This document shows positions 7,345 through 27,434 of a DNA stretch of 64,000 nucleotides, one piece after another (within the stretch, counting starts at the first letter, position 1; every line of letters starts with the position of its first letter). The notes under the pieces were generated by a model that ran no database searches, was not told the origin of the DNA, and worked only from the letters and a program-made list of their open reading frames with translations. Source of the DNA: Kiritimatiellia bacterium (GTDB lineage Bacteria; Verrucomicrobiota; Kiritimatiellia; RFP12; JBMNHG01); NCBI GenBank assembly GCA_050950285.1, contig JBMNHG010000002.1:948654-1012653 (forward strand), written 5' to 3'. The position numbers and the translations under genes were made by a program.

Positions 7345-10300
7345 ATGAGTCACGTGTCACGCAGTTCGATCATCGTCTCAATGGGTTTGCTGGCGCTCGC
7401 CTTTCCATGCGCCGCACTGGCCGAGGAGGTGCCCGTGAAGAGCGGGCTTGCAATGTGGCTCGCGGCCGACCATATCGAAAACACGGCCGATGGCGAATCG
7501 ATCGCCACATGGACGGACCTTTCCGGCATAGGCCACGATGCCGTATCGATTTCCGCCGGCGATTCCCCCGTGTTCAAGGAGAACCAGCTGAACGGAAAGC
7601 CCGTGCTCCGCTTCGATGGACAGGGCGACTCGATGCGCGTCAGCGGTTTCGCCTCGACCACCAACATGACGATCTTCACGGTCGTCAAGGCCTCCAGCTA
7701 CCAGTCGCTTCTCCGCTGGCAGGGCGCGTCAGGCGGCTTTTTCGTGTACCATTGGAACAACCTCTTGATCTCCAGCTCGAACGGCGGCACAGCCGAAGGC
7801 CCCGAGGCAGGGCTGCGCACCGGTCTCGCCCAGAATCGATGGAACATCGGCGAGGCTGTCATCGATACCGCGGATACGCAGACGGCCTCGACCTTCACGA
7901 ACGGCGCGCCCGTCGCGACCAGTGTCTGGCGCAACAACCCGAACGGCGGTCCGGACCTCTACATCGGCCGCTACTTCCAGGGCAGCGAGTTCTACAACGG
8001 CGACATCGCCGAAATCATCGTCTACTCCCGTGCGCTTTCGACGAGCGAGCGCGGTCTCGTCGGAAGCTATCTCCAGCGCAAGTACGCCCTTCCCGGCGCC
8101 TATTCGTCATTCCTCGTTTCCAACTCCGTGAACGGCAACACGGACTTTATCGGCGCCTCGCCCGCGCACATCGTCGATTTCCCGATCTCGCCTTCGTTCG
8201 ACGAGTACCAGATCACATTCGGAGCCGGGTCTTCCGCCGATCCCGCGGGTTGGCTGGAGATGCCCGCCGCAGTCGGAGACCTCCCCGCGATCGCCTTCAC
8301 GCCGCCGATGGTCGATGGACCCATCACCTTCCGTGCGTGGGTGCGTTCGTCCGAAGACCCCGTGGATTCGATCGTCTCGATGTCGTACACCATCGAGTAT
8401 TGCACCGTCCCGCCTGTCGCCCTGGCGCATGACGCCTCCCTCGAAATCGACCCCGTGAACGGCACGCCGGTGCCGGCTTCCGCGATCGACGAGGGTTCGT
8501 ACGACTCCGCCTCGGGCATCCATTCCATGTGGGTCACGCCGGCATCCATCACCGCTCCGGGCACCGTCACGCTCCATGTGCAGAACAACGCCGGCATCAC
8601 CGCGACCACTACCGCGCAAATCGCGCCGGCGTTCTGGTGCACGTTCGAGGCCGAGGGCGCGACCTCCGGCGCCCATTCGCTCGAGGCCGCCTTCAACGGC
8701 ATCGCATACGGTTCCGCGGCCGCGACCGCGACCGTCTTCTATGCCTGGAACTTCGGCGACGGCTCGCCCCTGGTGGAAGGCGAGGGCCTCACAACGGTTG
8801 GCCACGACTTTACGGAGCCAGGCTCCTACACGGTCCGGCTTTCGGTCAGCAACCTGCTCGGAAACACGGCGAACGCGGTGCGTACGGGCTACATCACCGT
8901 GTACGGCGCCCGCCTGTACGCCGATGCCGAATCCGGGACGGGCTCCTATCCCTACGCGACGCCCGGAACGGCTTCCTCCGACTTGCAGGCCGTTGTCTCC
9001 GCCGCGCGCGAAATCGCCGCGACCGGCCTCCCGGGCGTCATCGTCGAGGTCGCCCCGGGAACGTACGACCTCGATGCCGAACTGCTGCTCGACGAGCCCA
9101 TCACGGTCATGGGCACCGGAACGCGCGAAGAGACCCTTGTCCGCCGCGCCGCGACGGCGCCGGACCTCGTGCGCGTGGCGCATCTCACCGACACCAACGC
9201 CGTGCTCGCAGGCGTGACGCTCTGCAATGGCGCGATGAAACAGCCGCCCAATACCGACCAATACACGTTCGGCGCCGGCCTCTGCATCGAGCAGGGCATC
9301 GTCACGAACTGTGTCATCCGCGACAACAGCGGCAGCACGCTCCATGGTGGCAACTACGTTCGCGGCGCCGGCGTCTACCTTGCCGGCGGCGAACTCGTCG
9401 ACAGCCTCATCAGCGGCAACGGCACCAACTCGAACTTCCAGGCCGGCGGCGGCGTCTTCATGGTGGGCGGCATCCTCCGCCGCTGCGTGGTCAGCCAAAA
9501 CTCCGCCGGCTACAGTTCAACCTGGCAGAAGGGCATGGATGGCGGCGGCGGCCTCTACATGTCCGGCGGCCTCGCCGAGGGGTGCCTTTTCACCGGCAAC
9601 GAGGTCCGCAACTACGACGGCGGCGGCGTGTTGATGGATGGAGGCGAACTCGTCAACTGCACCGTCTCCGGCAACGAGGTCCGGTCCGGCGGCACGGCGA
9701 CGGGCGCCGGCGTCCGCCGCCGCCACGGCGGCACCGTACGCTCCTGCATCGTCTACGGCAATGTCAACGGCAGCGGCCTTGCGAACAATTTCGTCGGCTC
9801 GTCCGCGACCCACTCCTGCGCGCCGGAACTCACGTCCGGCACCGGCAACATCGCCGCCGACCCACGCTTCGTCGACGCCGCGAACGGCGACTTCCACATC
9901 TCCGCGGTTTCGCCGTGCATCGATCTCGCCGCCGCCACCACCGCCACGCTCGACCTCGACGGGAACGCCCGCGTCGTCGATGGCGACGGCGATGGGGTCG
10001 CAACGCCCGACATGGGCTGCTACGAGTACTTCCGCCCCGCCGACGTCTTCGGCTGCTCGTTCGTCGCGACCAATGCGACGGCCGGCATCGGCTCGCTGGA
10101 TGTATCGTTCGCGGCCGTCCTCTACGGAAGCCCCGCCCAAACTTCGAGCGTGAGCTGCACCTGGGACTTCGGCGACGGCTCGCCCGCCGCGGTCGGGGCG
10201 AACCTGCTTTCCGTGGACCACTCGTACACGTCGATCGGCCAGTACGACGTGACCCTCACGGTCGAGAACGCGGACGACGAGCCGGTCACCTTCTTCCGTC

Positions 10301-11427
10301 CCGGCTACATCACCGTCTATGGCTCGACGGTCTACATCGCGACGAATTCGATTCCGTCCTGTCCGTATGCGACGCCCGCAACCGCCGCCGCCGATGTCAC
10401 CGACGGCTTCGCCGCCGCAATCGCGGCAGTCGATGCGGGCGCAACGGCGATGACGGTCGAAATCTCCGAGGGCTCGTACGCGATCGGCGCACAGCTCGCC
10501 TTCACGCGTCCCATCCGCATGGTGGGCGTGGATGGACCGGAGGTGACGGAGATCGTGCAGACCGCAGGCGACTCCCGTCTCGTATTCCTGGACGATCCGG
10601 GCGCGATGCTCTCCGGCGTCACGCTTCGCAACGGCTTCCTCTTGAACGACCGTTACGGAGCAGGCGCGAGAGTGGAGCAGGGCGTCATCACAAACTGCGT
10701 CATCACCGGGTGCAACGGCGGCGGACACGCGAGGGGCTGCCTCTACGGCTCGCTCTACGTCGCGAACTCCGGCCTCGCTGTCGACACGCTCGTGATCAGC
10801 AACCGCTACGAATACAACGCCGCCGCAGTGTGGGTCGTCGGCGGGACGGTCGACCGCTGCGAAATCGCGTGGAACCGCAACTCCATGCAGCACCACTCCG
10901 GCGACGGCGGAGCAGGCGTCAGGATGTCCGGCGGCACCGTCCGCAACAGCCTTGTCCGTCACAACACCAGCATCTACCACAATGGCGGCGGCGCGCGCAT
11001 CTACGGGGGAACCTTTGAAAACTGCACGGTCGTGGACAACAACGTCGAGAAGCAGACCGATCCCGGATATGGCGGCGGCGTCTTCCAGCAGGGCGGAACC
11101 GTGCGCAACTGCATCGTCGTGCGCAACGAGGTCGGCGGTAATGCGAGCGATTATGTCGCCTCTGGAACGCCGGCATGCGAGCACAACTGCGCCCCCGAAC
11201 TCGCCGGGGCCGGGAACGGGAACATCGACGTCGCGCCGCTCTTCCGCGATGCGGAGAATGGCGACTACCGCATCCTTTCCGCCAGCCCGACCGCCGGCGC
11301 CGGCGCGAACCAGGCGTGGATGGCCTCCGCCCTGGATTTCGCCCGCCAGCCGCGGATCCTGGGCGGCCGCGTCGACATGGGCTGCTACGAGGCCGCCCCC
11401 GTCGGCACGCTGGTCCTCCTGCGCTGA
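7345..11427 (+). CDS. Large secreted protein: LamG/concanavalin-like domain, two PKD domains, two right-handed beta-helix modules, choice-of-anchor-Q-like segments, GTLVLLR tail
   Basis: AAGGAG RBS; signal peptide; GDIAEIIVYSRALS; WNFGDGS and WDFGDGS; GGGVFM repeats; DLDGNARV..DMGCYE. Confidence 0.88.
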   Translation: MSHVSRSSIIVSMGLLALAFPCAALAEEVPVKSGLAMWLAADHIENTADGESIATWTDLSGIGHDAVSISAGDSPVFKENQLNGKPVLRFDGQGDSMRVSGFASTTNMTIFTVVKASSYQSLLRWQGASGGFFVYHWNNLLISSSNGGTAEGPEAGLRTGLAQNRWNIGEAVIDTADTQTASTFTNGAPVATSVWRNNPNGGPDLYIGRYFQGSEFYNGDIAEIIVYSRALSTSERGLVGSYLQRKYALPGAYSSFLVSNSVNGNTDFIGASPAHIVDFPISPSFDEYQITFGAGSSADPAGWLEMPAAVGDLPAIAFTPPMVDGPITFRAWVRSSEDPVDSIVSMSYTIEYCTVPPVALAHDASLEIDPVNGTPVPASAIDEGSYDSASGIHSMWVTPASITAPGTVTLHVQNNAGITATTTAQIAPAFWCTFEAEGATSGAHSLEAAFNGIAYGSAAATATVFYAWNFGDGSPLVEGEGLTTVGHDFTEPGSYTVRLSVSNLLGNTANAVRTGYITVYGARLYADAESGTGSYPYATPGTASSDLQAVVSAAREIAATGLPGVIVEVAPGTYDLDAELLLDEPITVMGTGTREETLVRRAATAPDLVRVAHLTDTNAVLAGVTLCNGAMKQPPNTDQYTFGAGLCIEQGIVTNCVIRDNSGSTLHGGNYVRGAGVYLAGGELVDSLISGNGTNSNFQAGGGVFMVGGILRRCVVSQNSAGYSSTWQKGMDGGGGLYMSGGLAEGCLFTGNEVRNYDGGGVLMDGGELVNCTVSGNEVRSGGTATGAGVRRRHGGTVRSCIVYGNVNGSGLANNFVGSSATHSCAPELTSGTGNIAADPRFVDAANGDFHISAVSPCIDLAAATTATLDLDGNARVVDGDGDGVATPDMGCYEYFRPADVFGCSFVATNATAGIGSLDVSFAAVLYGSPAQTSSVSCTWDFGDGSPAAVGANLLSVDHSYTSIGQYDVTLTVENADDEPVTFFRPGYITVYGSTVYIATNSIPSCPYATPATAAADVTDGFAAAIAAVDAGATAMTVEISEGSYAIGAQLAFTRPIRMVGVDGPEVTEIVQTAGDSRLVFLDDPGAMLSGVTLRNGFLLNDRYGAGARVEQGVITNCVITGCNGGGHARGCLYGSLYVANSGLAVDTLVISNRYEYNAAAVWVVGGTVDRCEIAWNRNSMQHHSGDGGAGVRMSGGTVRNSLVRHNTSIYHNGGGARIYGGTFENCTVVDNNVEKQTDPGYGGGVFQQGGTVRNCIVVRNEVGGNASDYVASGTPACEHNCAPELAGAGNGNIDVAPLFRDAENGDYRILSASPTAGAGANQAWMASALDFARQPRILGGRVDMGCYEAAPVGTLVLLR

Positions 11428-11434
11428 TCCCCCC

Positions 11435-11451
11435 AAAAAACGGCACGCCGC
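11435..11451. repeat. Dispersed A-tract + CGGCGCGCCG palindrome (other copies 24574-24590, 35155-35172, 43052-43067)
   Basis: AAAAAACGGC(A/G)CGCCGC recurs in intergenic positions, mostly next to stop codons. Confidence 0.6.
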
Positions 11452-11547
11452 GACTTCATATACCCCCTCGCCTACCGTCCGGGGACGCTCTTCCTGTTGC
11501 GGTAGGCTTGGGCGGGGCACCCGCACTGCCCAAGCCCGTGAACCGTA

Positions 11548-12642: not shown

Positions 12643-12659
12643 GATGGTTCGTCCAAATT

Positions 12660-15600
12660 CTACGGGCCCCGGCAAATCATCACGATGCGGCCGGAGGTCG
12701 CGGGGATGGGAAGGGCGACATGGAGCGTGCCGTCGCCGTCGCGGCGGGTTTCCAGCACGGCGCCGTCGTCGAGGGAGATCGCGCGGCTTGCCGCGGAGGA
12801 TCCCCCGTGGAAGAACCCCGGCTTGATCGCGATGCCGGCCGTGCCGCCTTCATCGCCTTCGCGGCAGACGGAAAGGAAGAGCGTGTCTTGAGAGACGAAC
12901 GGATACACCGCGATCCCGGGATCGACAAGGAGCGGATCGCCCGTGACGGCGTCGATGCGGGACTTGAGTTCCGCCGCGGCGAGCGCCGTGAGCGTCGAGG
13001 GCGCCTTGTGGTACACGACCAGTCCGCCGGCATCCCGTTTTGCGGTTCGATCTTCCGCGAAGAGTTCTTCCGCCCTTGGATTCGCAAGGGTGGGATGGGA
13101 ATCGCCGATCGCGACAAGCGTGGCGCCGCGGCCTTGCGCCGCGAGGGCGGCATCGAGCTCCCAGTCCTCCCAGTTCCAGGGGTCGGCGAGAAGCAGCGGC
13201 GTGCCGCCTTTCCATTCCTTCAGCGCGTCCGTCGATGTCACGAACGAAATCGGCAGGCCCTGCTTGGCGAGCCCCGTGTAGACGTCCCGGCAGAAGTCGA
13301 CGACATCGGTCTCGCCGTCCGCCGTGTGGATGCCGAAGGAGAGCCGCCCCATCGGCTTGCCCATGCGGCGTTCCTGTCCTCGCCACGAAACGACGATGCC
13401 GAAGCCCGCCGCCTCTTCGGGACGAAGCTGCGTCACGAGATTGTGCACGCGGCAGCGGATTTCATGGTCGCGCGCGGTGTAGCGCATCCCATGGTATCCC
13501 TGTCCGGTGAAGCCCGACGTGTGATAGGGCCAAAACCTGCCGTCGAGATCCACGCGGCCGAGGAAGTAGGTGGCGTACCACTGGCGACGCGCCACGTCGC
13601 TGTCGCCGTTCGATCCGAACCACCAGCGGTTCTGCTCGGAATTCACCCATCCCCATTCGTCGTATGCGCCGCTTTGGAGATTGGGGTTCGCGGCGATGAC
13701 GCCCATGCGCGAGCCCAGCGACCACCAGAGGTCCTGGTTGAAGAGTTCCCAGAAGAGGTCGGTGCCGACACCGATGTGCGTCTTCGCGAGGTCCGCGCCA
13801 AGCTGCCCTCCGACCAGCGGGAAGCTGCCGTGCGTGCGGACGAACATCCCGTATCCGTGCTCCTCGAAGATGCCCTGCGTGAGCAGGATTTCGTCGGCGT
13901 AGCGGCGCAGGTTGAAGATCTGCCAGCCATCGCCATGCCTTGTGCGGATCTCCTCGACGATCGCATCGCGGGAGCGCCCTTCGAGCCCCGGCCTGCCTTG
14001 CCCGCGGAGCCAGCGGTCGAAGTCGACGAAGACATCCCACGAGAAGCACGTCCCCGTGTTCACGCCGTTCCAGCGGTCCTCGAGCGAGAAGAGGATCCCC
14101 TTCGAGTCGCGCGGGAAGCGCACGTCGCCCGCCATCATGCGCCCGAGGTACGCTTTCGCGACCCACTCCCACGTGAATTCGCCGTTCGGGAAGCGGCGCC
14201 ACGGGTTGGTGTAGTGCGAGGCGGCGGTGCTGCTCGCGAACAGGCGCGCGGGATTTTCCCTGTTCCTCGTGCCGATTTCCATCAGGTCGAGCGAGTAGGC
14301 CCAAAGCTTGTCGTGCGCGCCGCCCCATCCCTGCGTCCACTTGCCCATGCCGAGCCCGAAGCTGTCGGAAGAGCGCCATCCGGGCGAACACAGCAGGCCG
14401 GCCTGCGGCCACCCGCCGGGAAGGGTCGGCGCAAGCTTCGTGCCTTCCTCGGGGATGAAGAAGACATCGAAGTCGCGCGTCGCGAGAACGGTTCCGCCCT
14501 CGCGCAGCGAGAAGTGGTAGCGCACGGGGCCGAAGTGTCCAAGCGGTTCCAGGTCGAGGCCGATCACGCGCTCCGCGCAAACGGGCAGTTCCCCCGCATC
14601 GATGGTGCGGCGCGTTACCTTGCCCGACGCGAGGTCGCGCCTTTCGATTTCAAGCGTCGCACGGGCGATGGGTTTCGCGCCGGCGAGGGCGCCGGCCCAT
14701 CCCCAGGCCTCCCATTCGACGAGCGAGCAGTTCGAATCGAAGCCGCGGTTGGGTTCGCGGCGCGCCGCCGGATCGAGGCCCGTGACATGCAGCTCGAGGG
14801 CTTGGACGGGCGCGGAAGGCGCATCGAAGACGCGCTCCCACGTCGCGCGCAATCCGCAGGTGCCCGCGAAGTCGGCTTCGCTGGCCGAAGCGAGGACGGC
14901 CCCGTCGCCCGCATCCGCCGCGGCCTTGCCGAGAATCTCGAAGTCGCGCGGGTTGTTGCGGGACCAGAAGCGGTATGTGCCGCCGCCGGTGAGACGCACC
15001 CCGGCAATGTGCACGGGCTCCCCCCATGAAAGCACGGCGCGCTGCTCGGCCGCGGAACGCGCGGCCCAGATCGCGTGGATCGGCACCTTGTCGCGCCCGG
15101 ACGCAATGCTCGCGGAACCATCGTTCAGTCCGGATGCCGTCGGGTTCCCGGGCCAGAGAAGGTCGGCCGCCGTCGCGAGAGGCGCGATGTTGGCGAAGTG
15201 GTTGCGCAGGCGCAGGCGCACTTTCGGCGCCGTATCCGGCCTGTACACGTAGCGGTACGAGAGGATGCCGTCGACATCCTCTCGCGGACGGGGCGCGGGG
15301 TCGAGTTCGTCGAGCGTGGACTCGTCCTCCTCGATGGCGATGGAAAAGGGCTCGCGAGCCGCATCCTTCGCCCACGCATCCGGCGCCACGTAGTCCATCG
15401 TGTCGCCTGCGGCCTTGGGTCCGAACGGGATCCTCGCGACGGCCGCCGCCCATTCCGCGTAGCGCGGGGAAGTGCGCGCCAGCGCATCCTCGAAGTCGCC
15501 GGCGAAAAGCACGATGCGCGTCTGGTCGACATCGGCATCGAGCAGCGCGGGAAGCGTCGACTCGTTCGCGCAACGCGCGAGGACGGACGTGCGCGGGAAG

Positions 15601-16703
15601 CGCCGGGGGTCGCGGAGGTAGTTTTCGGGCTCGTACGCGAGAAGCGGGCTCTCGATCGGCGCGCCGGGGAGGTGGAAGTCAAAGCGCGAACCAAAGGGGA
15701 TCGCGCCGTCGATGCCCTCCGTGACGATCTCGCAGGCGGTGCGGCGCAGGCGCGGCAGAAGCGACCATGTGTTGATGGGGAGCAACTCGCGCAGCGGCTT
15801 CGCGACCTCTCCGTTGACAAAGCTCGCGCCCAGGAAAAGCGGCACGCCGCTTTTTGCGTGGTCGGCGACGCGTTGCGCTTCTCTTTCGGGAAGAGCGAAA
15901 GAGCTCGCGTAGACGGCAGCGACCGCTTCGCCCTCGGCGGGCTCCAGCCCGACGCGGGCGTGGAGGCCGAGCTCGCGCCATGCGCCGATGAACGGGGCCG
16001 GTGGAAGGCCGTCGAAGCAGAGCACCACGTTCGCGGATGCCGTATCGGAAACGCCTTCGCCCTTTGCGATGCGCGCGACGGCGAAATCGCGGACCTCCAG
16101 GGTTTCGGGCGTCGCGTTTGCTTCCACGCGCACCCATGCGGAGAAGGCGATCGACTCGATGTGGTTCGCGCCGCCTGTCGGCCACACGCGGAAGCGCGCG
16201 TGCGGAAGGGATTCGCCGATGGAAATCCGGTCGCCGGCCATGTACGACGGCATGTGGGCCAGGAAGGTCGGACGGCAGAGGATCGGGAAGCGTGGGCGGT
16301 CGCGGCCATCGAGCGCGATCGTCATGTCGAGGCTGGCGATGCGGCTGCTGGACTGGACGCGCTGGACCGTGCCGAGCGCGGTGAAGTCTTCGGGTTCGGC
16401 ATCGGCGGAACGCGCAAGCACTTCGTTGATCGCGGCGACAACGGCGGAATCCGGGCCATAGCGGATTTCGAAGCGTGGCGCGCCATTCGCGACGCGTCCT
16501 TCCGACGTATCCGTGAAACGCCATGCCCCGGATTCGTCGATGAACCGGCCGCCCGAATTCGCGGGATCGTCCGTCATCGACACCGCAGGGGCATCCGCGA
16601 AGGGTTGTTCCAGTCTTTCGCCTGGCGCAAGCATCGCCGTTTGCGCGGCAAACGACGATGCGCATGCGAGGATGAACGCAGTGCAACGAACCGGGAGTTT
16701 CAT
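12660..16703 (-). CDS. Large secreted protein, probable uncharacterised glycoside hydrolase (discoidin-like domain, TIM-barrel-like and GATase/trimerisation-like regions)
   Basis: 1347-aa ORF with signal peptide; Trp/Gly-rich central region; located among GH16/GH5 genes. Family assignment is inference. Confidence 0.65.
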   Translation of the reverse strand: MKLPVRCTAFILACASSFAAQTAMLAPGERLEQPFADAPAVSMTDDPANSGGRFIDESGAWRFTDTSEGRVANGAPRFEIRYGPDSAVVAAINEVLARSADAEPEDFTALGTVQRVQSSSRIASLDMTIALDGRDRPRFPILCRPTFLAHMPSYMAGDRISIGESLPHARFRVWPTGGANHIESIAFSAWVRVEANATPETLEVRDFAVARIAKGEGVSDTASANVVLCFDGLPPAPFIGAWRELGLHARVGLEPAEGEAVAAVYASSFALPEREAQRVADHAKSGVPLFLGASFVNGEVAKPLRELLPINTWSLLPRLRRTACEIVTEGIDGAIPFGSRFDFHLPGAPIESPLLAYEPENYLRDPRRFPRTSVLARCANESTLPALLDADVDQTRIVLFAGDFEDALARTSPRYAEWAAAVARIPFGPKAAGDTMDYVAPDAWAKDAAREPFSIAIEEDESTLDELDPAPRPREDVDGILSYRYVYRPDTAPKVRLRLRNHFANIAPLATAADLLWPGNPTASGLNDGSASIASGRDKVPIHAIWAARSAAEQRAVLSWGEPVHIAGVRLTGGGTYRFWSRNNPRDFEILGKAAADAGDGAVLASASEADFAGTCGLRATWERVFDAPSAPVQALELHVTGLDPAARREPNRGFDSNCSLVEWEAWGWAGALAGAKPIARATLEIERRDLASGKVTRRTIDAGELPVCAERVIGLDLEPLGHFGPVRYHFSLREGGTVLATRDFDVFFIPEEGTKLAPTLPGGWPQAGLLCSPGWRSSDSFGLGMGKWTQGWGGAHDKLWAYSLDLMEIGTRNRENPARLFASSTAASHYTNPWRRFPNGEFTWEWVAKAYLGRMMAGDVRFPRDSKGILFSLEDRWNGVNTGTCFSWDVFVDFDRWLRGQGRPGLEGRSRDAIVEEIRTRHGDGWQIFNLRRYADEILLTQGIFEEHGYGMFVRTHGSFPLVGGQLGADLAKTHIGVGTDLFWELFNQDLWWSLGSRMGVIAANPNLQSGAYDEWGWVNSEQNRWWFGSNGDSDVARRQWYATYFLGRVDLDGRFWPYHTSGFTGQGYHGMRYTARDHEIRCRVHNLVTQLRPEEAAGFGIVVSWRGQERRMGKPMGRLSFGIHTADGETDVVDFCRDVYTGLAKQGLPISFVTSTDALKEWKGGTPLLLADPWNWEDWELDAALAAQGRGATLVAIGDSHPTLANPRAEELFAEDRTAKRDAGGLVVYHKAPSTLTALAAAELKSRIDAVTGDPLLVDPGIAVYPFVSQDTLFLSVCREGDEGGTAGIAIKPGFFHGGSSAASRAISLDDGAVLETRRDGDGTLHVALPIPATSGRIVMICRGP

Positions 16704-16766
16704 CGATCGAAGGCCTGTAGTCCCATCGTCGGGAAGAAAGGGAAAGGGCTGGCTTGCGATGTGCCC

Positions 16767-18740: not shown

Positions 18741-18751
18741 GGGTGGTGCAA

Positions 18752-18792
18752 TGATGGGTGATGGGTGATGGGTGATAGGTGGTGGGTGGGGT
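18752..18792. repeat. Short GATGGGT heptamer / G-run repeat upstream of the GH16 start
   Basis: GATGGGT GATGGGT GATGGGT GATAGGT GGTGGGTGGGG. Confidence 0.6.
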
Positions 18793-18835
18793 TCATGAAT
18801 CGCGGGACTGCAAGGCGGGGATCGGCCGGATGCTG

Positions 18836-19513: not shown

Positions 19514-19535
19514 CAGTGATTTCAAGCGTCAAACC

Positions 19536-20549
19536 TCATCCTCCGAAAAGCGACGTGCAGGCGACGGTCTTTTGATTGTCGCCGGTGAACAGTCCGAAGT
19601 TGCCTCGGAAGTCCCAGTTCGCCCAGGCGATGCCGTGGCGCTCCATGACGGCGAGGATGTCGGCGTACCAGGCGGCGCGGATCGCATCCGGCGCCAGGGA
19701 AATGACGCCGAACTCGCCGCAGTACAGCGGCAGTCCCGTGCGCGCGGCGACGGCGAGCGGCCACATCAAATCGGCTTCCATCGCCTCGATCCCGCCAAGG
19801 ATGTTCATGCTGCCGACCTTGCGCTGCTGTTCCGGCGGCAGGGCGTTGAAGGCCTCCTGCGGCACGGCCAGCCCGGGATACTGGATGGGGCCGTCGTAGT
19901 CCTTGAGCTTCCACGTCCACGAGGCGCGGTAGTGGGTCACCGGCATCGGATGGTAGTAATGGTAGGTCAGGATGAGGTTCCGGTCGTTCTCCGGAACATC
20001 CAGAAACTCGTATTGGCTGGCGCTGTTCCAGCGGTTCGAGCCGAGGACCAGGCAGCGGTCCGGTTCACGTGCGCGGACTTCGCGACAGGCCAGATGCAAA
20101 ACGCGGTTCCAGTCGGCCGGATCGTCGGCGACGGCCTCGTTGAGCAGCTCGTAGGCCACCCGTTCAAGCGGACGGTCGCGGAGGCGCGCCGAAATCTGCC
20201 GCCAGCATTCCGCGAACGCCTCTGCCGCCGCCGGATCGGTGAACAGCGGCTTGGGGCCTTCGTTGAAGTGGTGCGTGCGCAGGATGTGCAGATCGATCAC
20301 CGCGTTCAGCCCGGCCCCGAGGATCCAGTCGAGCCCCTGCTGAAGCAGGTCCCAGGCCTCCTCGTGCGGAGCGCCCCGGTCGTCCCAGAGCTGCTCCTCG
20401 TCGACGGGGAGGCGCAGGTGGTCGAGGCCGAGCGCGGCCAGGCGATCGACATCCTCGCGCGTGAAGCGCCGACGTCGTTCGTCGCCGCGCGCGTCGCTTT
20501 GGCTGAGCCAGTGGGAGATGTTGGTGCCGCGTTGGATTGCGAATGGCAT
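19536..20549 (-). CDS. Glycoside hydrolase family 5 (cellulase family), no signal peptide
   Basis: RGTNISHWLSQ, DHLRLPVD, YELLNEA (acid/base), HYY, LYCGEFG (nucleophile). Confidence 0.92.
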   Translation of the reverse strand: MPFAIQRGTNISHWLSQSDARGDERRRRFTREDVDRLAALGLDHLRLPVDEEQLWDDRGAPHEEAWDLLQQGLDWILGAGLNAVIDLHILRTHHFNEGPKPLFTDPAAAEAFAECWRQISARLRDRPLERVAYELLNEAVADDPADWNRVLHLACREVRAREPDRCLVLGSNRWNSASQYEFLDVPENDRNLILTYHYYHPMPVTHYRASWTWKLKDYDGPIQYPGLAVPQEAFNALPPEQQRKVGSMNILGGIEAMEADLMWPLAVAARTGLPLYCGEFGVISLAPDAIRAAWYADILAVMERHGIAWANWDFRGNFGLFTGDNQKTVACTSLFGG

Positions 20550-20578
20550 GGATGGCAAACCTTGTGCGGATGGACGGA

Positions 20579-23500
20579 TCAACGGAGGAGCAGAACCGTG
20601 GCGTGGTTCCGCAGGGTGACGACGACGTCGTTGCCGTCGCCGCCGGCATACGTGATGACGGCGAAGCGGTCGGGGGCGAATTCGAACTCGGCGCCTTCGG
20701 GCAGGCCGGCGAACGCGCCTTCGACAGGCGCGGAACCCCGGTTGTCGATGATCGTGACGCCCGCCGCGAGCGCCGGGGAACCGCCGGGGAGCAGCGCGAG
20801 ATCGAGTTCGGCGCCCTGCAGGAGAACCCGTGCCTCGGGATGCGTCATCACGACGCGTCCCGACGCGGAGGCGCCGACGCCGATCTTCAGCGAGCCGTTA
20901 TCGGCGATGCGCAGGAAGCGCCCCAGCGTGATCGAGCCCGAGCCGTTGCCGCCGGCGCCCGGCGCGAGAGTGCCGCCCTCCACGTCGACCGTGCGGTTCA
21001 GCGTCCCGGAGCCGCAGAGGGTTCCATCGGTTTCGACGATGACGCCGCCGGCCAGCGATCCGTTGACGCGGAGCGCGCCTTCCTTGATGAACGTCATGCC
21101 GCTGTAGGTGTTGTCGGCGCCCAGCGTGACGGTGCCGGCGGTGCGCTTGAAGAAGTTGACGCTGTCGGAGAGATTGCCGGCGTTGGGCACCTTGACATCC
21201 GCCAGCGTGGCGTTGATCGTGCCGTTTTCCGCCGTGAAGCCGTAGGCGCCCAGCGCGCCGCCGCCGACGCTGTCGGCGACCGTGCCGTCGACGAGCGTGA
21301 AGTTGCCGACGAAGGCGCTACGGCCCGCGAGGTCGAGCGTCGCCCCGTTCCGGACGCAGACGGGCGAGAGGGCGCGGTTCGAATTCGTGGAGGCGACCCC
21401 GAGAGCCCGGTCGCTGCCGAGCTTCAACGTGCCTTCGGAAATCGTCGTGGGGCCGTTGTAGGAGTTGACGCCCGAAAGCAGGAGCGTCCCCGCGCCGATC
21501 TTGTTCAAGGCGCCGTAGGTGCCGGAGATGGCGCCGCCGAGCTCGAGCGTGCCGGCGACGACGTCGAAGGTTCCGCCGTCGTGGGACAATGTGATGTTCC
21601 TGGCGTAGGTGAAACCCTCCGTCGCACGAAGCGTGCCGCCATGCATCGTCATCGTGCCGGTTCCCAAGTTCCCCGGAGCGGAAACGGACACGACGCCGCC
21701 CAGAAGATAGTTGATGCCGGAATGCGTGTTGTTGGTGTTCGCCAGCACCAGCGTCCCGTCGCCGACCTTGACGAGCGCGGAACCGTTGCCGTTCGCGTAT
21801 TGGGAGGCGAGGGTCAGGACCCCGCTTCCGTGCTGGTGGACGATCAGGTCGTACATGTAGCTGTTTCTGCACTTGATCGGGCCGCCGGCGATGGTGAAGT
21901 CGTGCGGTCCGGTGAAGAGAAGCCCGGAGCGGTACAGCAACAGGGAGCCGTCTGCAATCGTCAGCGTCTGTCCCGGCGCGGCGGGCGCGATCTTCAGCGT
22001 GCCGATCGACATTCCCGTCACGCTCTCGGACGCCGTGACGAGGATGTTCTTGTCCGTTCCCGGCGTCGTAAAGGAGTCGTACGCGTCCAGCGCGGCGATG
22101 GGGCCGTCGCCGACCGCCCAGTCGGCCTTGTCGACCGTGGCGTAGCCGATGCCGCCGAGAATGCCGTTGCCGTTGGCGGTTGTCGTCGAGGCCGCTCCGG
22201 ATTCGAAGTCGATCGCCGCGCCGCTGTTGAATGCGCGGGCGATGGGGCCGAGCGCGATCGTCGAGGCGCCGCCGTCGGTGCGGCGGATGCGGCTCTGCCC
22301 GGCGTTCAGCGTCGTGCCGCTGCCGGCGCCAAGCGCTTGCGCGTAGCTGCCGCCCTTGAGCTGGAGATCGACGCCGCCGAGCGTCAGCGCGGCGGCGTTG
22401 TTCGTCGAGACGCCGAGGCGGTTCGAGTTGTGCGAGGTGTAGTCGAGCACGGTCGTTCCGCCATGGAGGACGAGCTTCGCGGAGGTGTTCGTCCCGGAGA
22501 GGACGAGGGTGCCGGGGCCGGATTTGCCGATGCCGCCGGTTGTTCCGTCAATCAGGCTCGCCGGCGGAAAGACCGTCGTTCCCGGGCCCAGGAAGGTCAC
22601 CGTCTGGCCACCGGCGTTCACGCCGCCGGAAAGGGTCAGCGGGGCATGCGCCATGTTGGGGAAATTGACGGTTCGTTGAGGCCGGATCATGCCGCCCAGC
22701 GTAAGCGCGTTCCCGCCGTCGAAGCCGACGGGCATGGCGCCGTCGTTGTTTGTGGATTGGGCCAGGACGATGTCGTTCGTGATGCACTGCCCGTTGACCA
22801 GCGCCTTGAGGAAGAAACCGCGCCCGCTGTTCGTGAAAAGCGCCGCGACACCCAGCGGCGTGACCACCGCGCCCTCGCCTCCGGGGCCGCCGATGGAAAG
22901 CGAATTGTAGCCGGCCGTTGCGTCGACAGTGACTTTGGCGCCGTTCGCCGCCCCGGCGCCGAAGAGGTTGTTGCCGTAGATCGCCAGGTCGGCGCCGGCG
23001 CCGCGGTACCAGAAGTTGAATCCGCAGTTGCTTGTGCCGCTGGCGTTTCCCGCGTTGTTCTCGCGAATGTCGCCGGTGATGAGGACGTTGGCGCCGGTGT
23101 GGAGCCAAGGCCCGACGCCGCTGTTGTTCAACCCGCCGTCGCTGTCCCTGAGCGACCAATTCCCGGAGACGACGAACGGCGCAGGCCCCAGGACGTTGAA
23201 CGGCGGGTTCGCCCACGGCGAGATCGCCAGCGCCGGGGCGTCGTCCGAACCGGCAAGCGTGAGACGGGCGTCGCCCGACCAGTACGTCGTTGCGTGGTTG
23301 ATCTTGATCTTGTTGGACAGGACGACGGGGAAATCCCCGACGACGAACGTCCCGCCGCCGCTGGTGAACGTGCCGGTCCCCAGTGCGTCGTCGTTCCCGA
23401 AGCAGACGACCGGGGCGGGCCCTGCGGTCGTGATCCCGCCGGAGAGCGTGTTGGAGCCGTTCAGCCGGAAGCCGCCGGGGCCTCGGAGCGTCAGCGATCC

Positions 23501-23974
23501 CGATCCGCCGATCGTGTTTTCCACGGTCAGCGGGTTGCTGCAGCCGTTGGTCCAGGTCTGCGCCGCCGCCAGGGCGACCAGAACGCCCTGCCCGGGCGTC
23601 CGCGAGCCGATCGCGACGGGCCCGGCGTCCGCCTCGATTTCGATGCCGCCGGAACCGAGTTCCAGCGTGCGGTCGACCCCGCCGCCCGTGAGCGTCGTTC
23701 CGCCGGTCGCGGTGCCGACGACCTTCAGCTTGGAAACGGCCTGGTCGGCGTCGAGCGAAACGGCCTGCGCCGAGGAGAGCGTGTCGATGTTGAAGACGGC
23801 GACATCGCCGGAACCGGGCGCGGTGGCGGGATCGGGCGTGGCCGCCGAGGCGCTGGTCGACCAGCCCGAGGCCGCGTTCCAGCTTCCGGACGTTCCATCC
23901 CAGTAGTCCGTCGCCGCCGAGGCGGTGCCTGCCGACAGCAGGACCATCGTCATGAAACTTGCGATTCTTTTCAT
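20579..23974 (-). CDS. Secreted protein with autotransporter-associated beta-strand repeats, no beta-barrel, ATVLLLR tail
   Basis: Signal peptide MKRIASF..SAA; repeats KIGAGTLLLSGVNSYNGPTTISEGTL; C-terminal YAGGDGNDVVVT. Confidence 0.88.
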   Translation of the reverse strand: MKRIASFMTMVLLSAGTASAATDYWDGTSGSWNAASGWSTSASAATPDPATAPGSGDVAVFNIDTLSSAQAVSLDADQAVSKLKVVGTATGGTTLTGGGVDRTLELGSGGIEIEADAGPVAIGSRTPGQGVLVALAAAQTWTNGCSNPLTVENTIGGSGSLTLRGPGGFRLNGSNTLSGGITTAGPAPVVCFGNDDALGTGTFTSGGGTFVVGDFPVVLSNKIKINHATTYWSGDARLTLAGSDDAPALAISPWANPPFNVLGPAPFVVSGNWSLRDSDGGLNNSGVGPWLHTGANVLITGDIRENNAGNASGTSNCGFNFWYRGAGADLAIYGNNLFGAGAANGAKVTVDATAGYNSLSIGGPGGEGAVVTPLGVAALFTNSGRGFFLKALVNGQCITNDIVLAQSTNNDGAMPVGFDGGNALTLGGMIRPQRTVNFPNMAHAPLTLSGGVNAGGQTVTFLGPGTTVFPPASLIDGTTGGIGKSGPGTLVLSGTNTSAKLVLHGGTTVLDYTSHNSNRLGVSTNNAAALTLGGVDLQLKGGSYAQALGAGSGTTLNAGQSRIRRTDGGASTIALGPIARAFNSGAAIDFESGAASTTTANGNGILGGIGYATVDKADWAVGDGPIAALDAYDSFTTPGTDKNILVTASESVTGMSIGTLKIAPAAPGQTLTIADGSLLLYRSGLLFTGPHDFTIAGGPIKCRNSYMYDLIVHQHGSGVLTLASQYANGNGSALVKVGDGTLVLANTNNTHSGINYLLGGVVSVSAPGNLGTGTMTMHGGTLRATEGFTYARNITLSHDGGTFDVVAGTLELGGAISGTYGALNKIGAGTLLLSGVNSYNGPTTISEGTLKLGSDRALGVASTNSNRALSPVCVRNGATLDLAGRSAFVGNFTLVDGTVADSVGGGALGAYGFTAENGTINATLADVKVPNAGNLSDSVNFFKRTAGTVTLGADNTYSGMTFIKEGALRVNGSLAGGVIVETDGTLCGSGTLNRTVDVEGGTLAPGAGGNGSGSITLGRFLRIADNGSLKIGVGASASGRVVMTHPEARVLLQGAELDLALLPGGSPALAAGVTIIDNRGSAPVEGAFAGLPEGAEFEFAPDRFAVITYAGGDGNDVVVTLRNHATVLLLR

Positions 23975-24327
23975 TGGGATTCCTTTGGTGGTTGGGTTTG
24001 CGGATCGTGCCATGTCGGTTTTGGGGACCCTTCGCCCGACTTGCCGGACTTGTCCTCGCCGACGCCCTCGATCATCTTGATTTCCGCTGGCGAACTGGCC
24101 GGCCTGGCGCGGCGCGCCGCGTTTTCCGGCCCCTCGATCAACCTGGGCGTCCTGGCGCCGCGCCCGGACTCCAGATATTCGACCGAAAGCGCCCAGAAGG
24201 AGTTCTCGCCCTGCGCGACGAACTCCCGATGCACCGTCAGCACGCGGTGCGAGCGGAGAAACCGGCCCAGGTCCTCCTGCAGCCCGGCGTCACCCCGTGC
24301 GGGTAACGCATAGAAAGCCAGTTGCAT
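23971..24327 (-). pseudogene. Internally deleted HRDC-domain protein of the type found as a DGR accessory gene
   Basis: N-terminus MQLAFYALP..EDLGRFLRSHRVLTVHREFV..SFWALSVEYLE plus HRDC tail PASSPAEIKMIEGVGEDK; first HRDC helices missing. Confidence 0.65.
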
Positions 24328-24341
24328 AATGAACTGCTTCC

Positions 24342-24370
24342 AGTGTAGGGCTCGGGGTGGGCGTCGTCAA
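24342..24370 (-). promoter_or_regulatory. sigma70-like promoter
   Basis: TTGACG-17 nt-TACACT, 14 nt upstream of ATG 24327. Confidence 0.6.
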
Positions 24371-24597
24371 CCAAGTTTCTCAGCTTCTTCCGCCCACCCA
24401 ACCCCCAACACCAAGGCATCCCCCATGAAAAACCACCATCAACGGCTCGACGTGCTGGTCCGCGAGAGTGGGCGTGTCGCGATGAATGTCTGTATTTGCG
24501 CCTGACGTCGACGCACACCATGGTCGAGCGTCCGGTTGGCGACCGGGGCAGGCGCTTCCGTCGGAGCCCGAAGAAAAAACGGCGCGCCGCTATGGTT

Positions 24598-25206
24598 TCA
24601 CTGCCTCTGTATCGACAACGCCCCCTTGCGGCAAGCCCGGACGCAGAGGCCGCAACGAAGGCAGTCGCGATCGCGGAAATCGCCGCCTTCCGCCTGGGCG
24701 GGAGGGTTGAACTGGAACGGGCAGGCCTTGGCGCAGAGGCCGCACTGGACACAGCTTGGATCCACACGGATCGCGGTCCCGGCAGGACGGATCCGCCGCA
24801 GCATCTTCCCCATCGGACAGACCGCGCACCAGAATCCGCGATTGAACACAAGCGCCCCGGCAATTCCGACCGTGCTTGTGATCGCGATAAGCCAGTACAA
24901 GGTCCTGCCGAATCCGGAGATGGATCCCGGCCTCTGCCAGAGGATCAGGACGGCCAGCAATGCCGGGAGAAACACCAGCGACAGATTCCCTTTCAGAAAA
25001 GCGGCGGGCAGCTTCCGTCCCGTATCCGGCATGAACGAGTAGAAAGCCCCGCGAGGACAGTAGTTCCCGCAGCCATACCGCCCGCCATGCTTCAACGCGC
25101 CATAAATTCCAAGCGCGACATCCAGGAGCATGCAATACGAAAGAAGCGGGAACTTCCATCCCAGGCCAATGACCACCAGGAAAATCGCCGCGCGTGCAAC
25201 CTTCAT
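24598..25206 (-). CDS. Membrane-bound 4Fe-4S binding protein (NapH/YccM-like)
   Basis: TM segments, CGNYCPRG, CAVCPMG, CVQCGLCAKACP, CLRCGLCVRAC. Confidence 0.88.
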   Translation of the reverse strand: MKVARAAIFLVVIGLGWKFPLLSYCMLLDVALGIYGALKHGGRYGCGNYCPRGAFYSFMPDTGRKLPAAFLKGNLSLVFLPALLAVLILWQRPGSISGFGRTLYWLIAITSTVGIAGALVFNRGFWCAVCPMGKMLRRIRPAGTAIRVDPSCVQCGLCAKACPFQFNPPAQAEGGDFRDRDCLRCGLCVRACRKGALSIQRQ

Positions 25207-25316
25207 TGCGCTACCTCATGCCACTGCGGTTCGCCGGTTTTCCGGACGACCCGGTTTCGCCGGCGGTGGAGATGGATGCATCCGCCCCGCCGCCCGCTCG
25301 AAAACGAAAGCCCGGA

Positions 25317-27434
25317 TTATCGGAGCAGAAGGAGGGTGCCTTCGTAATTCGGCACCTTGATGCAGAGTTCGGTGCCGGTCTCCTCGACGAGGATGCCTTC
25401 CGGCTTCAGCGTCATGTTCCCGGTGATGGTGCCCGTCTTGTCAAGATACTCCATGAGCGTGATCCAACCGCCGCCGGCCTTGGCGAACGCGGTGGCGTCG
25501 ATCTCGAGCTTCGTGCCTTCTCCGTAGGTCGGCCTGCGGGTGTAGACGGGAGTCGCGAAACCTTCGCCCGGAATCTCGAAGGCAAGCGTGGATTGGCCAT
25601 GGAACTGGAGCTGCGAGGCGCGAACCGTCGTGTTCGAGCCGGCGATCTCGAGGCGGGAGCCGTAGTTCACGATCAATGAGCAGTTGTTGTCGGTGGTGAC
25701 GGTAAGCGTCGCGTTCTCGACATGCAGGACGTTGTTCGACGAGGACGAGTTGCGTCCGACATAGCAGTGGCGGTTGTCCACAACAACGGCGCCGTCGAGA
25801 ATATCCATGCGGCAGTCGCGGGCATTCATGCCGACGTCGATATCGTAGCGGTTGTCGAGCCGTGTGCCTTCGCCGGAGACGAGGACGACGGTATTCGATG
25901 CTCCGACCGGGCCACCGAAGTAGAAGTGGTGGCCGGTAGAGAACGTTGCGCCGTCGAGCACTTCAAGGCGGCAATGATGGCCGGGGTTGCCGATGTTCAC
26001 GACGCTCTTGCTGTGGACCGCGGCGTTGCTGATCACGAGCGCGTTGCCGACGGCAGCAACGTTGCCGCCGACCAAGACGCTGCTGTTGTTCGTCACGACT
26101 GCGCCATCGGCGATCACGAGCAGGTTCGAGCAGGCGCCGGCATTTTTGCCGACAATGAGCGAGCTGCCAATGTTGGCGCGTGCGTTGTCCGTGACAACCA
26201 CCGTGTTGCTCGTTCCAACCTGCCCCGCGACAAGATCGGCTTGGATGGTCTCGACGAGCGTCCCCTCGCCGGAAATGCGCGTCAGGTTGTGGGAGGATTG
26301 GCCTGCCGTGCCCGTGATGAAACTGCGGACGGGCCGGACATACGCACCGTCCTCGACAATCCATGTATTGAACGAACCGTTGTTGCCGCAGTTGAAGTCG
26401 TAGTTCTTGTTGGTGACGACCGTGCCGGCGCCGGCGATGCGCACGGCGTTGCTGGATGCGGCCGAGCCTTGGCCCAAATAGAGATGGGTGCCGGGCATGT
26501 AGAGCGAACCACCGGTGATTTCAAGCGTGTTGCCGCATGAAGCGTTGCCAACGAGGGTCTGCCCGGCAACCACACCGGTCGAGCCATTCGAGATTTCCAC
26601 CCTGTTCCCGCTTCCGGAACCTCCGACAAACAACTGGCTGTTGGGGACATCCAGATACGATCCGTCCCGGACGATCATCGTGTTGCCGTTTGCGCCAGCC
26701 TCATGTCCGACGACAAGATTGTTTTGCTCGCAATGGACAAACGCGCCCTTTTCCGCGACCAGCCTGTTCCCTTGCGACCGCCAGCCAACCATCAGGCCGG
26801 AGTTGCCGCTCGTCGAGCCATTGCCGAACCACGAGCCTTCGCCCGTGACCAGCACGCAGTTGTTGCTGGCGGCCGCCGATTGGCCCATCAGGGTGCTGCG
26901 GCCGCCGCGAAGCGTCGCGCCATTCGTGACGACCACGGTCGTGTTCGGGCCGTTCCAGCCGATGTTCAGGTCGTCCCGGTTCGAGGAGAAGACCGTCCCG
27001 GGGTTTGCGACGGTGAGGTGTACGGCCTTCACCAGGCGATGGGCGGTGAGAATCTTGTACGCGCCCGTCACGCATCCGCTCACGATGGAAACGGAGGTGT
27101 CGGCTTCGGACGAAGTGGCGCCGTCGCCGATGATGAAATACTTGTTGTTGGCGATGGTCCAGGTGTTGCCTGCACCGACGTCGAGCGTGACGTTCTGGTC
27201 GTTGTCAAAGGTGACGGCTGCGGATTCGGCGTCGCCCGTGAAGTGCACGGTGTATGTGCCGGGCGCCGTGCCGAAGTTCGCGTCGCCGGCGATTGTCGGC
27301 GCCGCGCCTTCCTTCCAGTTCCCGCCATCGGAGAAGACGCCGCCAAGCGTGTTCGTCCACGTATTGGCGAAGGCGGATGTTGCAAACGCGGCCGCGACCA
27401 TCGCGGCAAGTGCGGAATTGGATGCTCTGCCCAT
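25317..27434 (-). CDS. Secreted beta-helix repeat protein (T5SS/PEP-CTERM-associated repeat-like), GTLLLLR tail
   Basis: GAGG RBS; signal peptide; repeated VG...SNNxxxVxGxG units. Confidence 0.85.
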   Translation of the reverse strand: MGRASNSALAAMVAAAFATSAFANTWTNTLGGVFSDGGNWKEGAAPTIAGDANFGTAPGTYTVHFTGDAESAAVTFDNDQNVTLDVGAGNTWTIANNKYFIIGDGATSSEADTSVSIVSGCVTGAYKILTAHRLVKAVHLTVANPGTVFSSNRDDLNIGWNGPNTTVVVTNGATLRGGRSTLMGQSAAASNNCVLVTGEGSWFGNGSTSGNSGLMVGWRSQGNRLVAEKGAFVHCEQNNLVVGHEAGANGNTMIVRDGSYLDVPNSQLFVGGSGSGNRVEISNGSTGVVAGQTLVGNASCGNTLEITGGSLYMPGTHLYLGQGSAASSNAVRIAGAGTVVTNKNYDFNCGNNGSFNTWIVEDGAYVRPVRSFITGTAGQSSHNLTRISGEGTLVETIQADLVAGQVGTSNTVVVTDNARANIGSSLIVGKNAGACSNLLVIADGAVVTNNSSVLVGGNVAAVGNALVISNAAVHSKSVVNIGNPGHHCRLEVLDGATFSTGHHFYFGGPVGASNTVVLVSGEGTRLDNRYDIDVGMNARDCRMDILDGAVVVDNRHCYVGRNSSSSNNVLHVENATLTVTTDNNCSLIVNYGSRLEIAGSNTTVRASQLQFHGQSTLAFEIPGEGFATPVYTRRPTYGEGTKLEIDATAFAKAGGGWITLMEYLDKTGTITGNMTLKPEGILVEETGTELCIKVPNYEGTLLLLR

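Follow-up and report, generated by a model that had tools for sequence, protein, structure and literature searches.

A 64,000-nucleotide window from the genome of a Kiritimatiellia bacterium (the whole stretch of DNA that was analysed; contig JBMNHG010000002.1, positions 948,654 to 1,012,653) codes for three large exported proteins, P0001, P0002 and P0003, which end in a common tail of seven residues: Gly or Ala, Thr, four hydrophobic residues (Φ), and Arg or Lys. This tail is a proteome-wide tag. It is enriched on exported proteins, is used as a module on unrelated bodies, stands at the position where homologous bodies carry known anchors and, among the genomes searched, is confined to one class. 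The tail is probably a minimal sorting or docking signal, which would be read in trans by being added as a β-strand to a receptor of the cell envelope.

The tail closes three window proteins and recurs far above chance

P0001, P0002 and P0003 each start with a Sec-type signal peptide. Their C-terminal ends, ...CYEAAPVGTLVLLR, ...TLRNHATVLLLR and ...PNYEGTLLLLR*, were re-read from the translated open reading frames (ORFs), and the final residues GTLVLLR, ATVLLLR and GTLLLLR agree with the common short tail that the first-pass annotation of the window had described. P0001 matches Laminin_G_3, PKD, DUF5123 and choice_anch_Q (Pfam and NCBIfam); the match to choice_anch_Q (NF041518) stops 10 residues short of the C-terminus. 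P0002 matches PF12951 and TIGR02601 (PATR), and P0003 matches TIGR04393 (NCBIfam). For P0002, position 23974, which is Met14 of the longest ORF, is the likely start: from there, the protein has a normal signal peptide and agrees with the 1131-residue database copy P0139. Coordinates are compiled in Table 1.

The genome comprises 4.05 Mb in 12 contigs and has a G+C content of 66%. All ORFs were listed, and a home-made filter based on G+C at third codon positions (GC3) gave a set of 4331 coding-like ORFs, which includes spurious ones. The tail pattern, [GAS][TS][LIVMFA]4[RK] followed by a stop codon, closes 54 of these ORFs. Inside the ORFs, the pattern occurs 108 times in 1.49 million positions, which corresponds to an expected number of 0.31 at C-termini. 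The carriers are long (median length 1187 residues versus 214), and the tail is found on 49 of the 620 ORFs with at least 600 residues and on 38 of the 229 with at least 1000. A logo of the 54 tails consists of Gly (47) or Ala (7), Thr (52) or Ser (2), the positions L/I/V, L/F/I, L/I/F and L/V, and finally Arg (52) or Lys (2). All four middle positions are hydrophobic in the source genome, and a Pro-rich stretch lies ahead of the tail at positions -8 to -11. Looser versions such as NGTTILLR and DTGLIFLLR close about 16 more large exported proteins.

The 54 tails represent 39 distinct heptapeptides in 52 distinct 21-base codings. This number of codings indicates that selection acts on the tail peptide and that no DNA cassette was copied. 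The DNA pattern GGN ACN (NTN)4 MGN TRR occurs 47 times in the genome, compared to one occurrence of the reversed control. All 47 matches end in a true stop codon; 43 of them close an open frame of at least 200 codons, and four are orphans. Chance is excluded as the origin of the tail.

No other coding sequence of the window had been reported to end in this way. For the remaining genes, as given by crude gene calls, this statement holds, but an orphan second tail stretch is located behind P0001 (Table 1). It is probably a relic of an older 3' end of this gene. Three short open frames elsewhere in the genome (C2:87618, C3:85243 and C3:164987) also finish with orphan tails, which likewise look like relics of 3' ends that were replaced or have decayed.

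Most carriers are predicted to be exported, and their bodies are unrelated

A signal-peptide-like N-terminus was predicted for 38 of the 51 tail proteins with at least 300 residues and for 351 of 1309 others (odds ratio 8, Fisher p 5.5e-12). The tail is thus enriched on exported proteins, and most of the 13 tail proteins that lack a predicted signal peptide have over-long ORF starts. It is not universal on exported proteins: the tail is absent from the glycoside hydrolase (GH) enzymes of families GH16 and GH5 in the window, and from an exported protein of 1347 residues.

After removal of the last 30 residues, 53 tail proteins fell into 26 sequence clusters. The largest cluster contains 26 repeat-rich β-helix/PKD/LamG proteins, and the remainder are pairs or singletons. 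The sequence context directly before the tail is a β-helix end with the motif GxYE in 22 of the 53 proteins and a different one in 31. In public data, proteins of this kind are named by their repeats only, or are called "autotransporter" without possessing a barrel.

The tail occupies the anchor position of homologous bodies

The endings of the 120 best relatives each of the last 400 residues of P0001 and of the last 400 residues of P0002 were tallied. Among these relatives of P0001, the strict tail is present on 34 and a variant of it on 36; the end is of the FYRL type in 11 and PEP-CTERM-like in two. At least 26 of the remaining 37 end in visible tail variants with one polar residue (e.g. 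GLQLFVR, GFSLIVR); the rest is mixed and includes a few FYRL-type ends that the pattern missed. The FYRL-type ending, ..[FY][FY]R[IVL]x[VL].., is part of a different C-terminal module; it also recurs at many loci of the source genome, on other giant exported proteins (e.g. g1696-g1698, g1325-g1327 and g1109-g1112). Within the P0001 family, the linker between GxYE and the tail has a length of 4–6 residues.

The 22 closest relatives of P0002 among its best 120 all end in a tail-like heptamer after GGDGNDV; nine of these are strict tails, five are variants and eight are others such as ATLILFN. Among the more distant relatives in this set, 45 end in Phe, Trp or Tyr, most of them with the autotransporter domains PF03797 or PF18883, and about 15 are PEP-CTERM-like, a count that includes a few false calls. 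Five relatives of P0003 carry the tail (GTLLLLR, GTLILLK, GTMILLQ, STLVLIR, GFAVLIR) and two carry PEP-CTERM. The homologous bodies on which PEP-CTERM takes this position include P0009, P0011, P0024 and P0241.

These endings place the tail where known anchors stand on homologous bodies, and the comparison indicates that it is exchangeable in evolution with PEP-CTERM and with autotransporter barrels. The premise of the first-pass annotation, namely that such bodies normally carry known anchors, is borne out by these relatives and also by the domain matches: choice_anch_Q (NF041518), TIGR04393 and PATR/TIGR02601 are families defined by their position ahead of alternative anchors. The core that is constant over all variants is G-x-x-Φ-x-Φ-[RKQ]. 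This core corresponds to a β-strand pattern, and an all-hydrophobic middle would fit burial on both faces.

The tail matches no sorting-signal model and is predicted to be unpacked

No sorting-signal model of Pfam or NCBIfam matched the three whole proteins, nor their last 120 residues at E-values up to 10; note that the HMMER filters drop many weak matches. The tail is therefore not covered by the described sorting models that were searched.

Structures were predicted by means of AlphaFold2. The model of P0003 is a long β-helix with a predicted local distance difference test (pLDDT) value of 88.9, based on an alignment of 14 rows. Its last strand comprises residues 689–694; residues 695–705 have no secondary structure, and the pLDDT falls to 47. 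For the last 400 residues of P0001, the pLDDT is 92.0 (42 rows). No strand of at least three residues is found past position 350 of this model, and the final ten residues have a pLDDT of 66 versus 92–96 just before. On neither protein is the tail modelled as the last strand of the fold; it is predicted to be free and unpacked in the monomer on two different bodies.

Among the genomes searched, the tail is restricted to the class and was lost or replaced repeatedly

The distribution was determined by counting matches to the DNA pattern in three samples: 301 genomes from the class, 61 from the order, and 101 that belong to the phylum but not to the class (each of these 101 at least 90% complete). 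At least one match was found in 125 of the 301 class genomes, and the reversed control gave 0–2 everywhere. Families are designated f2 to f63 below. In the class sample, high counts of 20–31 were obtained for genomes of f4, f39, f40, f60 and f63, and counts of 8–11 for f44, f46 and f57; almost no matches occurred in the whole families f2, f13, f21, f22, f29, f34 and f42. A relaxed pattern, which allows any residue after Gly and an R/K/Q-type end, stayed at control level in five nearly complete genomes of tail-poor families. In the order sample, the tail is present in every family except f2 (0 of 10 genomes), with counts of up to 49. Altogether, 20–49 matches were found in genomes of nine families other than that of the source genome.

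Outside the class, the 101 phylum genomes contained 0–3 matches each, like the controls. Among the genomes searched, the tail is confined to the class, and within the class it was lost or replaced several times. The tag, for which lineage specificity had been proposed, is common in many families of the class but not in every one. Homologues of the P0001 body are nearly absent from f2, where weak internal matches were found in two of five genomes.

Candidate readers do not follow the phyletic pattern of the tail

The genome contains six secretins, 11 matches of the type II secretion ATPase (T2SSE) type and a canonical gspF-G-H-I-J-K row. A second row consists of five pilin genes and the gene of an 882-residue GspK-like protein (C3:719031-721679). 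Three Omp85 proteins were identified: one is BamA-like, one adjoins a YadA-type trimeric autotransporter, and one is a ShlB with its TpsA. No PF03797 autotransporter barrel exceeded the cut-off genome-wide (best E-value 0.6). PorP/SprF (PF11751) gave no match in the genome at E-values up to 1, and SprA_N (PF14349) gave none either, but this search also matched none of the control genomes and is therefore uninformative.

Candidates for the protein that reads the tail were filtered by tail loss in f2 versus tail presence elsewhere in the order. With a single-protein query, the giant GspK was found in 33 of the 61 order genomes and in none of the 10 f2 genomes, but a profile of 13 orthologues found it in five of five f2 genomes. 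It was therefore not co-lost with the tail. The secretin encoded beside tail gene g0877 (C3:423637-425955) is present in all 10 genomes each of f3 and f5, but in none of the 11 genomes of f4 and none of the seven of f6, which bear the tail. The number of secretins was not informative, since PF00263 counts do not separate tail-free from tail-rich genomes; the f2 genomes retain three of the six secretin types of the source genome. A further secretin type (C2:829k-type), the gene of which directly follows gspF in the source genome (C2:826646-830088), and the pilin of about 320 residues encoded beside it in relatives are both missing from the tail-rich genomes G313, G307, G329, G304 and G221. Exosortase occurs in all 61 order genomes, including 10 of 10 of the tail-free f2. 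As to TonB, the tail looks like a TonB box, and two genomes have ExbB/ExbD genes close to their tail genes; however, TonB_C was unmatched in the source genome, G305, G085, G074 and G240, and is present in nine of 10 f2 genomes. The first-pass annotation had proposed to look for a translocon or protease that co-occurs with the tail; no family tested by phyletic pattern tracks it. A core envelope component common to all these genomes may act as the reader, or the reader may belong to a family outside those tried.

Some features of these components were recorded in addition. The giant GspK-like proteins (850–1080 residues; C3:719031-721679 and 12 orthologues) contain a conserved internal strand ..QQxFTIILRADAF.. 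near the C-terminus, and its T-hydrophobic-R likeness to the tail may be a coincidence. As read by eye, the giant and the canonical GspK each end in three strand-like stretches. The gene of the C2:829k-type secretin adjoins the gene of the ~320-residue pilin in six relatives (G301:C214, G310:C3, G314:C49, G240:C96, G074:C25 and G063:C27). One copy of this pilin in the source genome (C3:511594-512577) has the tail-like end ..LDPRGNTISMLR.

In the source genome, the tail genes lie among sulfatase, fucosidase and oxidoreductase genes. Across the tail loci analysed, the recurrent neighbours are genes for sulfatase, GFO/IDH/MocA, URO-D, DUF4838/GH2, fucosidase and FAD oxidoreductase, with a T2SSE ATPase in two genomes; no peptidase recurs beside tail genes. 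Within the source genome, the sole recurrent neighbour is a CBM9/NHL/FlgD_ig family with 15 members of about 1350 residues, which end in ..LWGxxxFE (e.g. C6:329100-333176, C2:635267-639277 and 13 paralogues). Seven of the 15 are at most three genes away from a tail gene.

The tail as a probable docking strand

A hydrophobic heptapeptide that is predicted to be free, starts with a near-invariant Gly-Thr pair, ends in a basic residue, sits a few residues behind a rod-shaped fold and is exchangeable with anchors is most simply explained as a docking strand. According to this explanation, the tail would stay unpacked on its own protein, as the models predict, and would be recognised in trans by a receptor of the cell envelope, to which it would add as a short, deeply buried β-strand. 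In this way, Sec-exported, rod-shaped proteins of a glycan-binding or adhesin type would be taken to or across the outer membrane, and their destination would presumably be the cell surface. The idea of a C-terminal export or anchoring signal, put forward in the first-pass annotation, is thus supported by the enrichment on exported proteins, by the missing match to sorting models and by the unpacked tail, from which we infer the function in export or anchoring.

To our knowledge, every C-terminal sorting signal described so far is either a whole folded domain or a tripartite sequence that includes a membrane helix. If the proposed function is correct, a seven-residue tag on about 3% of the proteome is a new and very simple case of sorting. 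The selection of folded proteins for passage through the outer membrane is a long-standing open question. Kiritimatiellia play a major part in the degradation of sulfated algal and mucin-type glycans. The tail would provide a one-line rule to predict the surface proteome of these organisms, and a better annotation for hundreds of public proteins that are labelled by repeats or as "autotransporter" without a barrel.

The best-studied precedent for such a mode of action is found in type IV pili, where the last 10 residues or so serve PilC/PilY1/MshQ as the entire docking device: they supply a strand that makes the sheet of a PilK-family pilin complete, and they lie buried within the tip complex (PMC13533445; PMC13711793). 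This C-terminus follows a β-propeller and contains a Trp-charged-hydrophobic motif (PMC13711793). In both cases, a large Sec-exported protein other than a pilin ends in a free peptide of about 10 residues, and the abundance of type IV filament components in the source genome (six secretins, 11 T2SSE matches) provides a similar context. However, one or two PilC/PilY1 proteins are described per pilus, with the gene in a minor-pilin operon, whereas about 55 proteins carry the tail here and none is encoded in a pilin operon. The tail-bearing bodies are of the β-helix, PATR or LamG type instead of a β-propeller, the tail has no Trp, and the pilin and secretin types examined do not track it. Given these differences in sequence, number and gene context, PilC/PilY1 is an analogy for the mode of action only and does not imply membership in the same family.

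By this analogy, the most concrete candidate for the reader would be a component of a type IV filament or type II secretion system; within the docking explanation, we give it a minority share of the probability. A bolder version, which we consider rather doubtful, takes the seven residues as the whole address: a single envelope machine would use them to export or display about 55 unrelated giants per cell. This machine might be a relative of type IV filaments or of the type II secretion system that accepts the tail as a donor strand. We know of no linear signal in type II secretion substrates. If this version were true, no shorter protein-sorting signal would be known in bacteria, and the tail would be the first linear and transplantable one for a secretin-type or comparable route across the outer membrane.

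Other systems share individual properties with the tail. PEP-CTERM likewise occupies the extreme C-terminus of Sec-exported, often passenger-like proteins, has many substrates per genome and stands in the same position; it also has the same order of elements, i.e. a conserved small motif, hydrophobic residues and a basic residue, of which the tail would be a miniature. In contrast to PEP-CTERM proteins, the last 20 residues lack a PEP motif, and the tail has no match to TIGR02595/PF07589, four hydrophobic residues instead of about 20 and hence no membrane-spanning helix, and a single basic residue instead of a cluster. In addition, exosortase is present whether or not a genome has the tail. 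The proposal that the tail is a minimised PEP-CTERM derivative finds no support, as the PEP motif and the helix are lacking and exosortase was kept in the tail-free f2.

The C-terminal domains (CTDs) of the type IX secretion system also constitute a many-to-one export signal on Sec-exported surface proteins, and in type B domains a similar pattern, G-x-hydrophobic...R, closes the last strand. These CTDs are, however, folded domains of 70–100 residues (PF18962/TIGR04183; PF13585/TIGR04131), whereas the tail has seven residues and no match to them; in the AlphaFold2 models, the fold of the body runs to a few residues before the tail. Classical type Va autotransporters have passenger-type bodies like those described here (PATR, TIGR04393, β-helix), and distant relatives of P0002 carry the barrel, but P0001, P0002 and P0003 are devoid of the 12-strand barrel PF03797. 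The β-signal of outer-membrane proteins, which is read by BamA, is likewise a short strand at the C-terminus, has a Gly a few positions from its end and acts by strand pairing. It has an aromatic end and alternating hydrophobic and polar residues and is found on barrel proteins, whereas the tail ends in Arg (52) or Lys (2), is hydrophobic throughout in the source genome and is attached to soluble β-helix proteins. The LPXTG-type motif and the helix of sortase substrates are visibly absent from the three tails.

Several points weigh against a docking signal. No candidate for the reader survives, as six of them fail the phyletic test (GspK, two secretin types, pilin, exosortase and TonB), and the neighbours at 40 tail loci of G058, G304, G307 and G313 and at those of the source genome include nothing reader-like. 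An AlphaFold2 monomer cannot exclude that the tail packs in the presence of a partner or in an oligomer, and the short linker of fixed length in the P0001 family would also suit a structural role. Moreover, the signal-peptide predictor and the gene calls were home-made, and the sampled genomes are related and not independent, so that the distribution counts overstate the number of events.

Alternative explanations

The tail could be a cleaved sorting signal, which we regard as unlikely. A peptidase or transpeptidase (sortase-, exosortase- or PorU-like, or PDZ-guided) would recognise Gly-Thr, cleave off the final five to six residues and possibly attach the C-terminus thus formed to a lipid, a glycan or a wall component. 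The tail does read as a miniature tripartite signal (G47/A7 and T52/S2, hydrophobic residues, R52/K2), is often preceded by a Pro-rich linker and stands in the PEP-CTERM position of relatives; furthermore, the genome has two exosortase homologues versus only three PEP-CTERM-like proteins found by the filter used. On the other hand, an intramembrane enzyme would need a substrate that stays in the membrane, which four hydrophobic residues cannot achieve; exosortase was not co-lost with the tail, and no PEP-CTERM, LPXTG or type IX model matches. A recurrent peptidase was not found beside the tail genes either, with the limit that the sortase and C25 families were not scanned genome-wide.

It is slightly less likely still that the tail is a structural strand, which would cap the end of the β-helix or be swapped between copies to form oligomers and would have no role in sorting. 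The fixed linker of 4–6 residues and the β-strand character of the tail residues are consistent with such a function, and a free hydrophobic peptide is unfavourable in water and must be buried somewhere. This explanation fits poorly with the occurrence of the tail on 26 unrelated body clusters and, in 31 of 53 cases, without the GxYE context. AlphaFold2 leaves the tail unpacked and at low confidence on two bodies that otherwise reach pLDDT values of 89–92, and relatives of the same fold that have no tail carry anchors instead.

Insertion of the tail into a membrane leaflet, or its binding to lipopolysaccharide, is improbable. Here, the terminal Arg would snorkel to the phosphates and no protein receptor would be required, in line with a run of four to five hydrophobic residues and, behind it, a cationic residue with a free carboxylate, and with the failure to find a receptor among the candidates. 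Five residues, however, contribute little anchoring energy for proteins of 600–2400 residues; the near-invariant Gly and Thr and the tolerance of single polar positions (GLQLFVR, GFSLIVR, GSVITVR) fit a strand-pairing site better, and the crossing of the outer membrane would be left unexplained. Finally, although periplasmic PDZ proteases read C-terminal residues, it is very improbable that the tail is a stability or quality-control mark for proteases of the Tsp/Prc or DegS type and not an address, because it is implausible that a degron would be present on about 3% of the proteome and be maintained by peptide-level selection on those exported proteins that are largest and most costly, and because the equivalence with anchors would not be explained.

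No description of the tail was found among the top-ranked full-text papers on C-terminal sorting or secretion in Kiritimatiellota, a search whose coverage excludes most subscription journals. The genome-wide statistics of the tail, its count outside the class, the structure predictions for two bodies and the survey of alternative endings in two body families are new here, as are the orphan second tail behind P0001 and the rejection of six candidate readers.

Gene arrangement in the window and further observations

Table 1. Tail-bearing genes, tail codons and neighbouring genes in the window (window coordinates).
Feature	Position	Strand	Description	Basis
DDE_Tnp_1 transposase gene	5870..7162	+	430 residues; immediately upstream of P0001	
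P0001 gene	7345..11427	+	1360 residues; signal peptide, LamG-like, two PKD, two β-helix modules, choice-of-anchor Q, then tail	translation, Pfam/NCBIfam
P0001 tail codons (GTLVLLR)	11404..11424	+	stop TGA 11425-11427; DNA-pattern match C2:960057-960080	
Orphan second tail stretch (GTLFLLR-TAG)	11482..11505	+	..FIYPLAYRPGTLFLLR; in frame, 18 codons past the P0001 TGA	
Exported protein gene	12660..16703	-	1347 residues; among tail genes; without tail, no Pfam/NCBIfam match	
GH5 cellulase ORF	19536..20582	-	as called, overlaps the P0002 gene end by 4 bases	
P0002 gene	20579..24013	-	longest ORF 1144 residues; signal peptide, PATR/autotransporter-associated β-strand repeats, then tail	
P0002 tail codons (ATVLLLR)	20582..20602	-	stop 20579-20581	
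P0003 gene	25317..27434	-	705 residues; signal peptide, β-helix of repeats associated with type V secretion/PEP-CTERM, then tail	
P0003 tail codons (GTLLLLR)	25320..25340	-	stop TAA 25317-25319; DNA-pattern match C2:973970-973993	

The overlap of the GH5 cellulase ORF with the end of the P0002 gene suggests that a tail protein is co-transcribed with a glycoside hydrolase. A second copy of the transposase listed in Table 1, with identical N- and C-terminal residues, is located at C2:934841-936133 and adjoins another tail gene.

Two further observations concern the genome as a whole. Among the coding-like ORFs, 2422 end in TAG, 1523 in TGA and 386 in TAA; these numbers are rough, as spurious ORFs are included, and TAG as the commonest stop codon is unusual at 66% G+C. 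A repeated ORF of about 230–280 residues with near-identical N-termini and the tail-like end ..VLVRFLPDGAVILLR was found at C8:804726-805560, C2:213086-213833, C4:171373-172117, C10:36672-37359 and other positions, and is probably part of a multi-copy mobile element.

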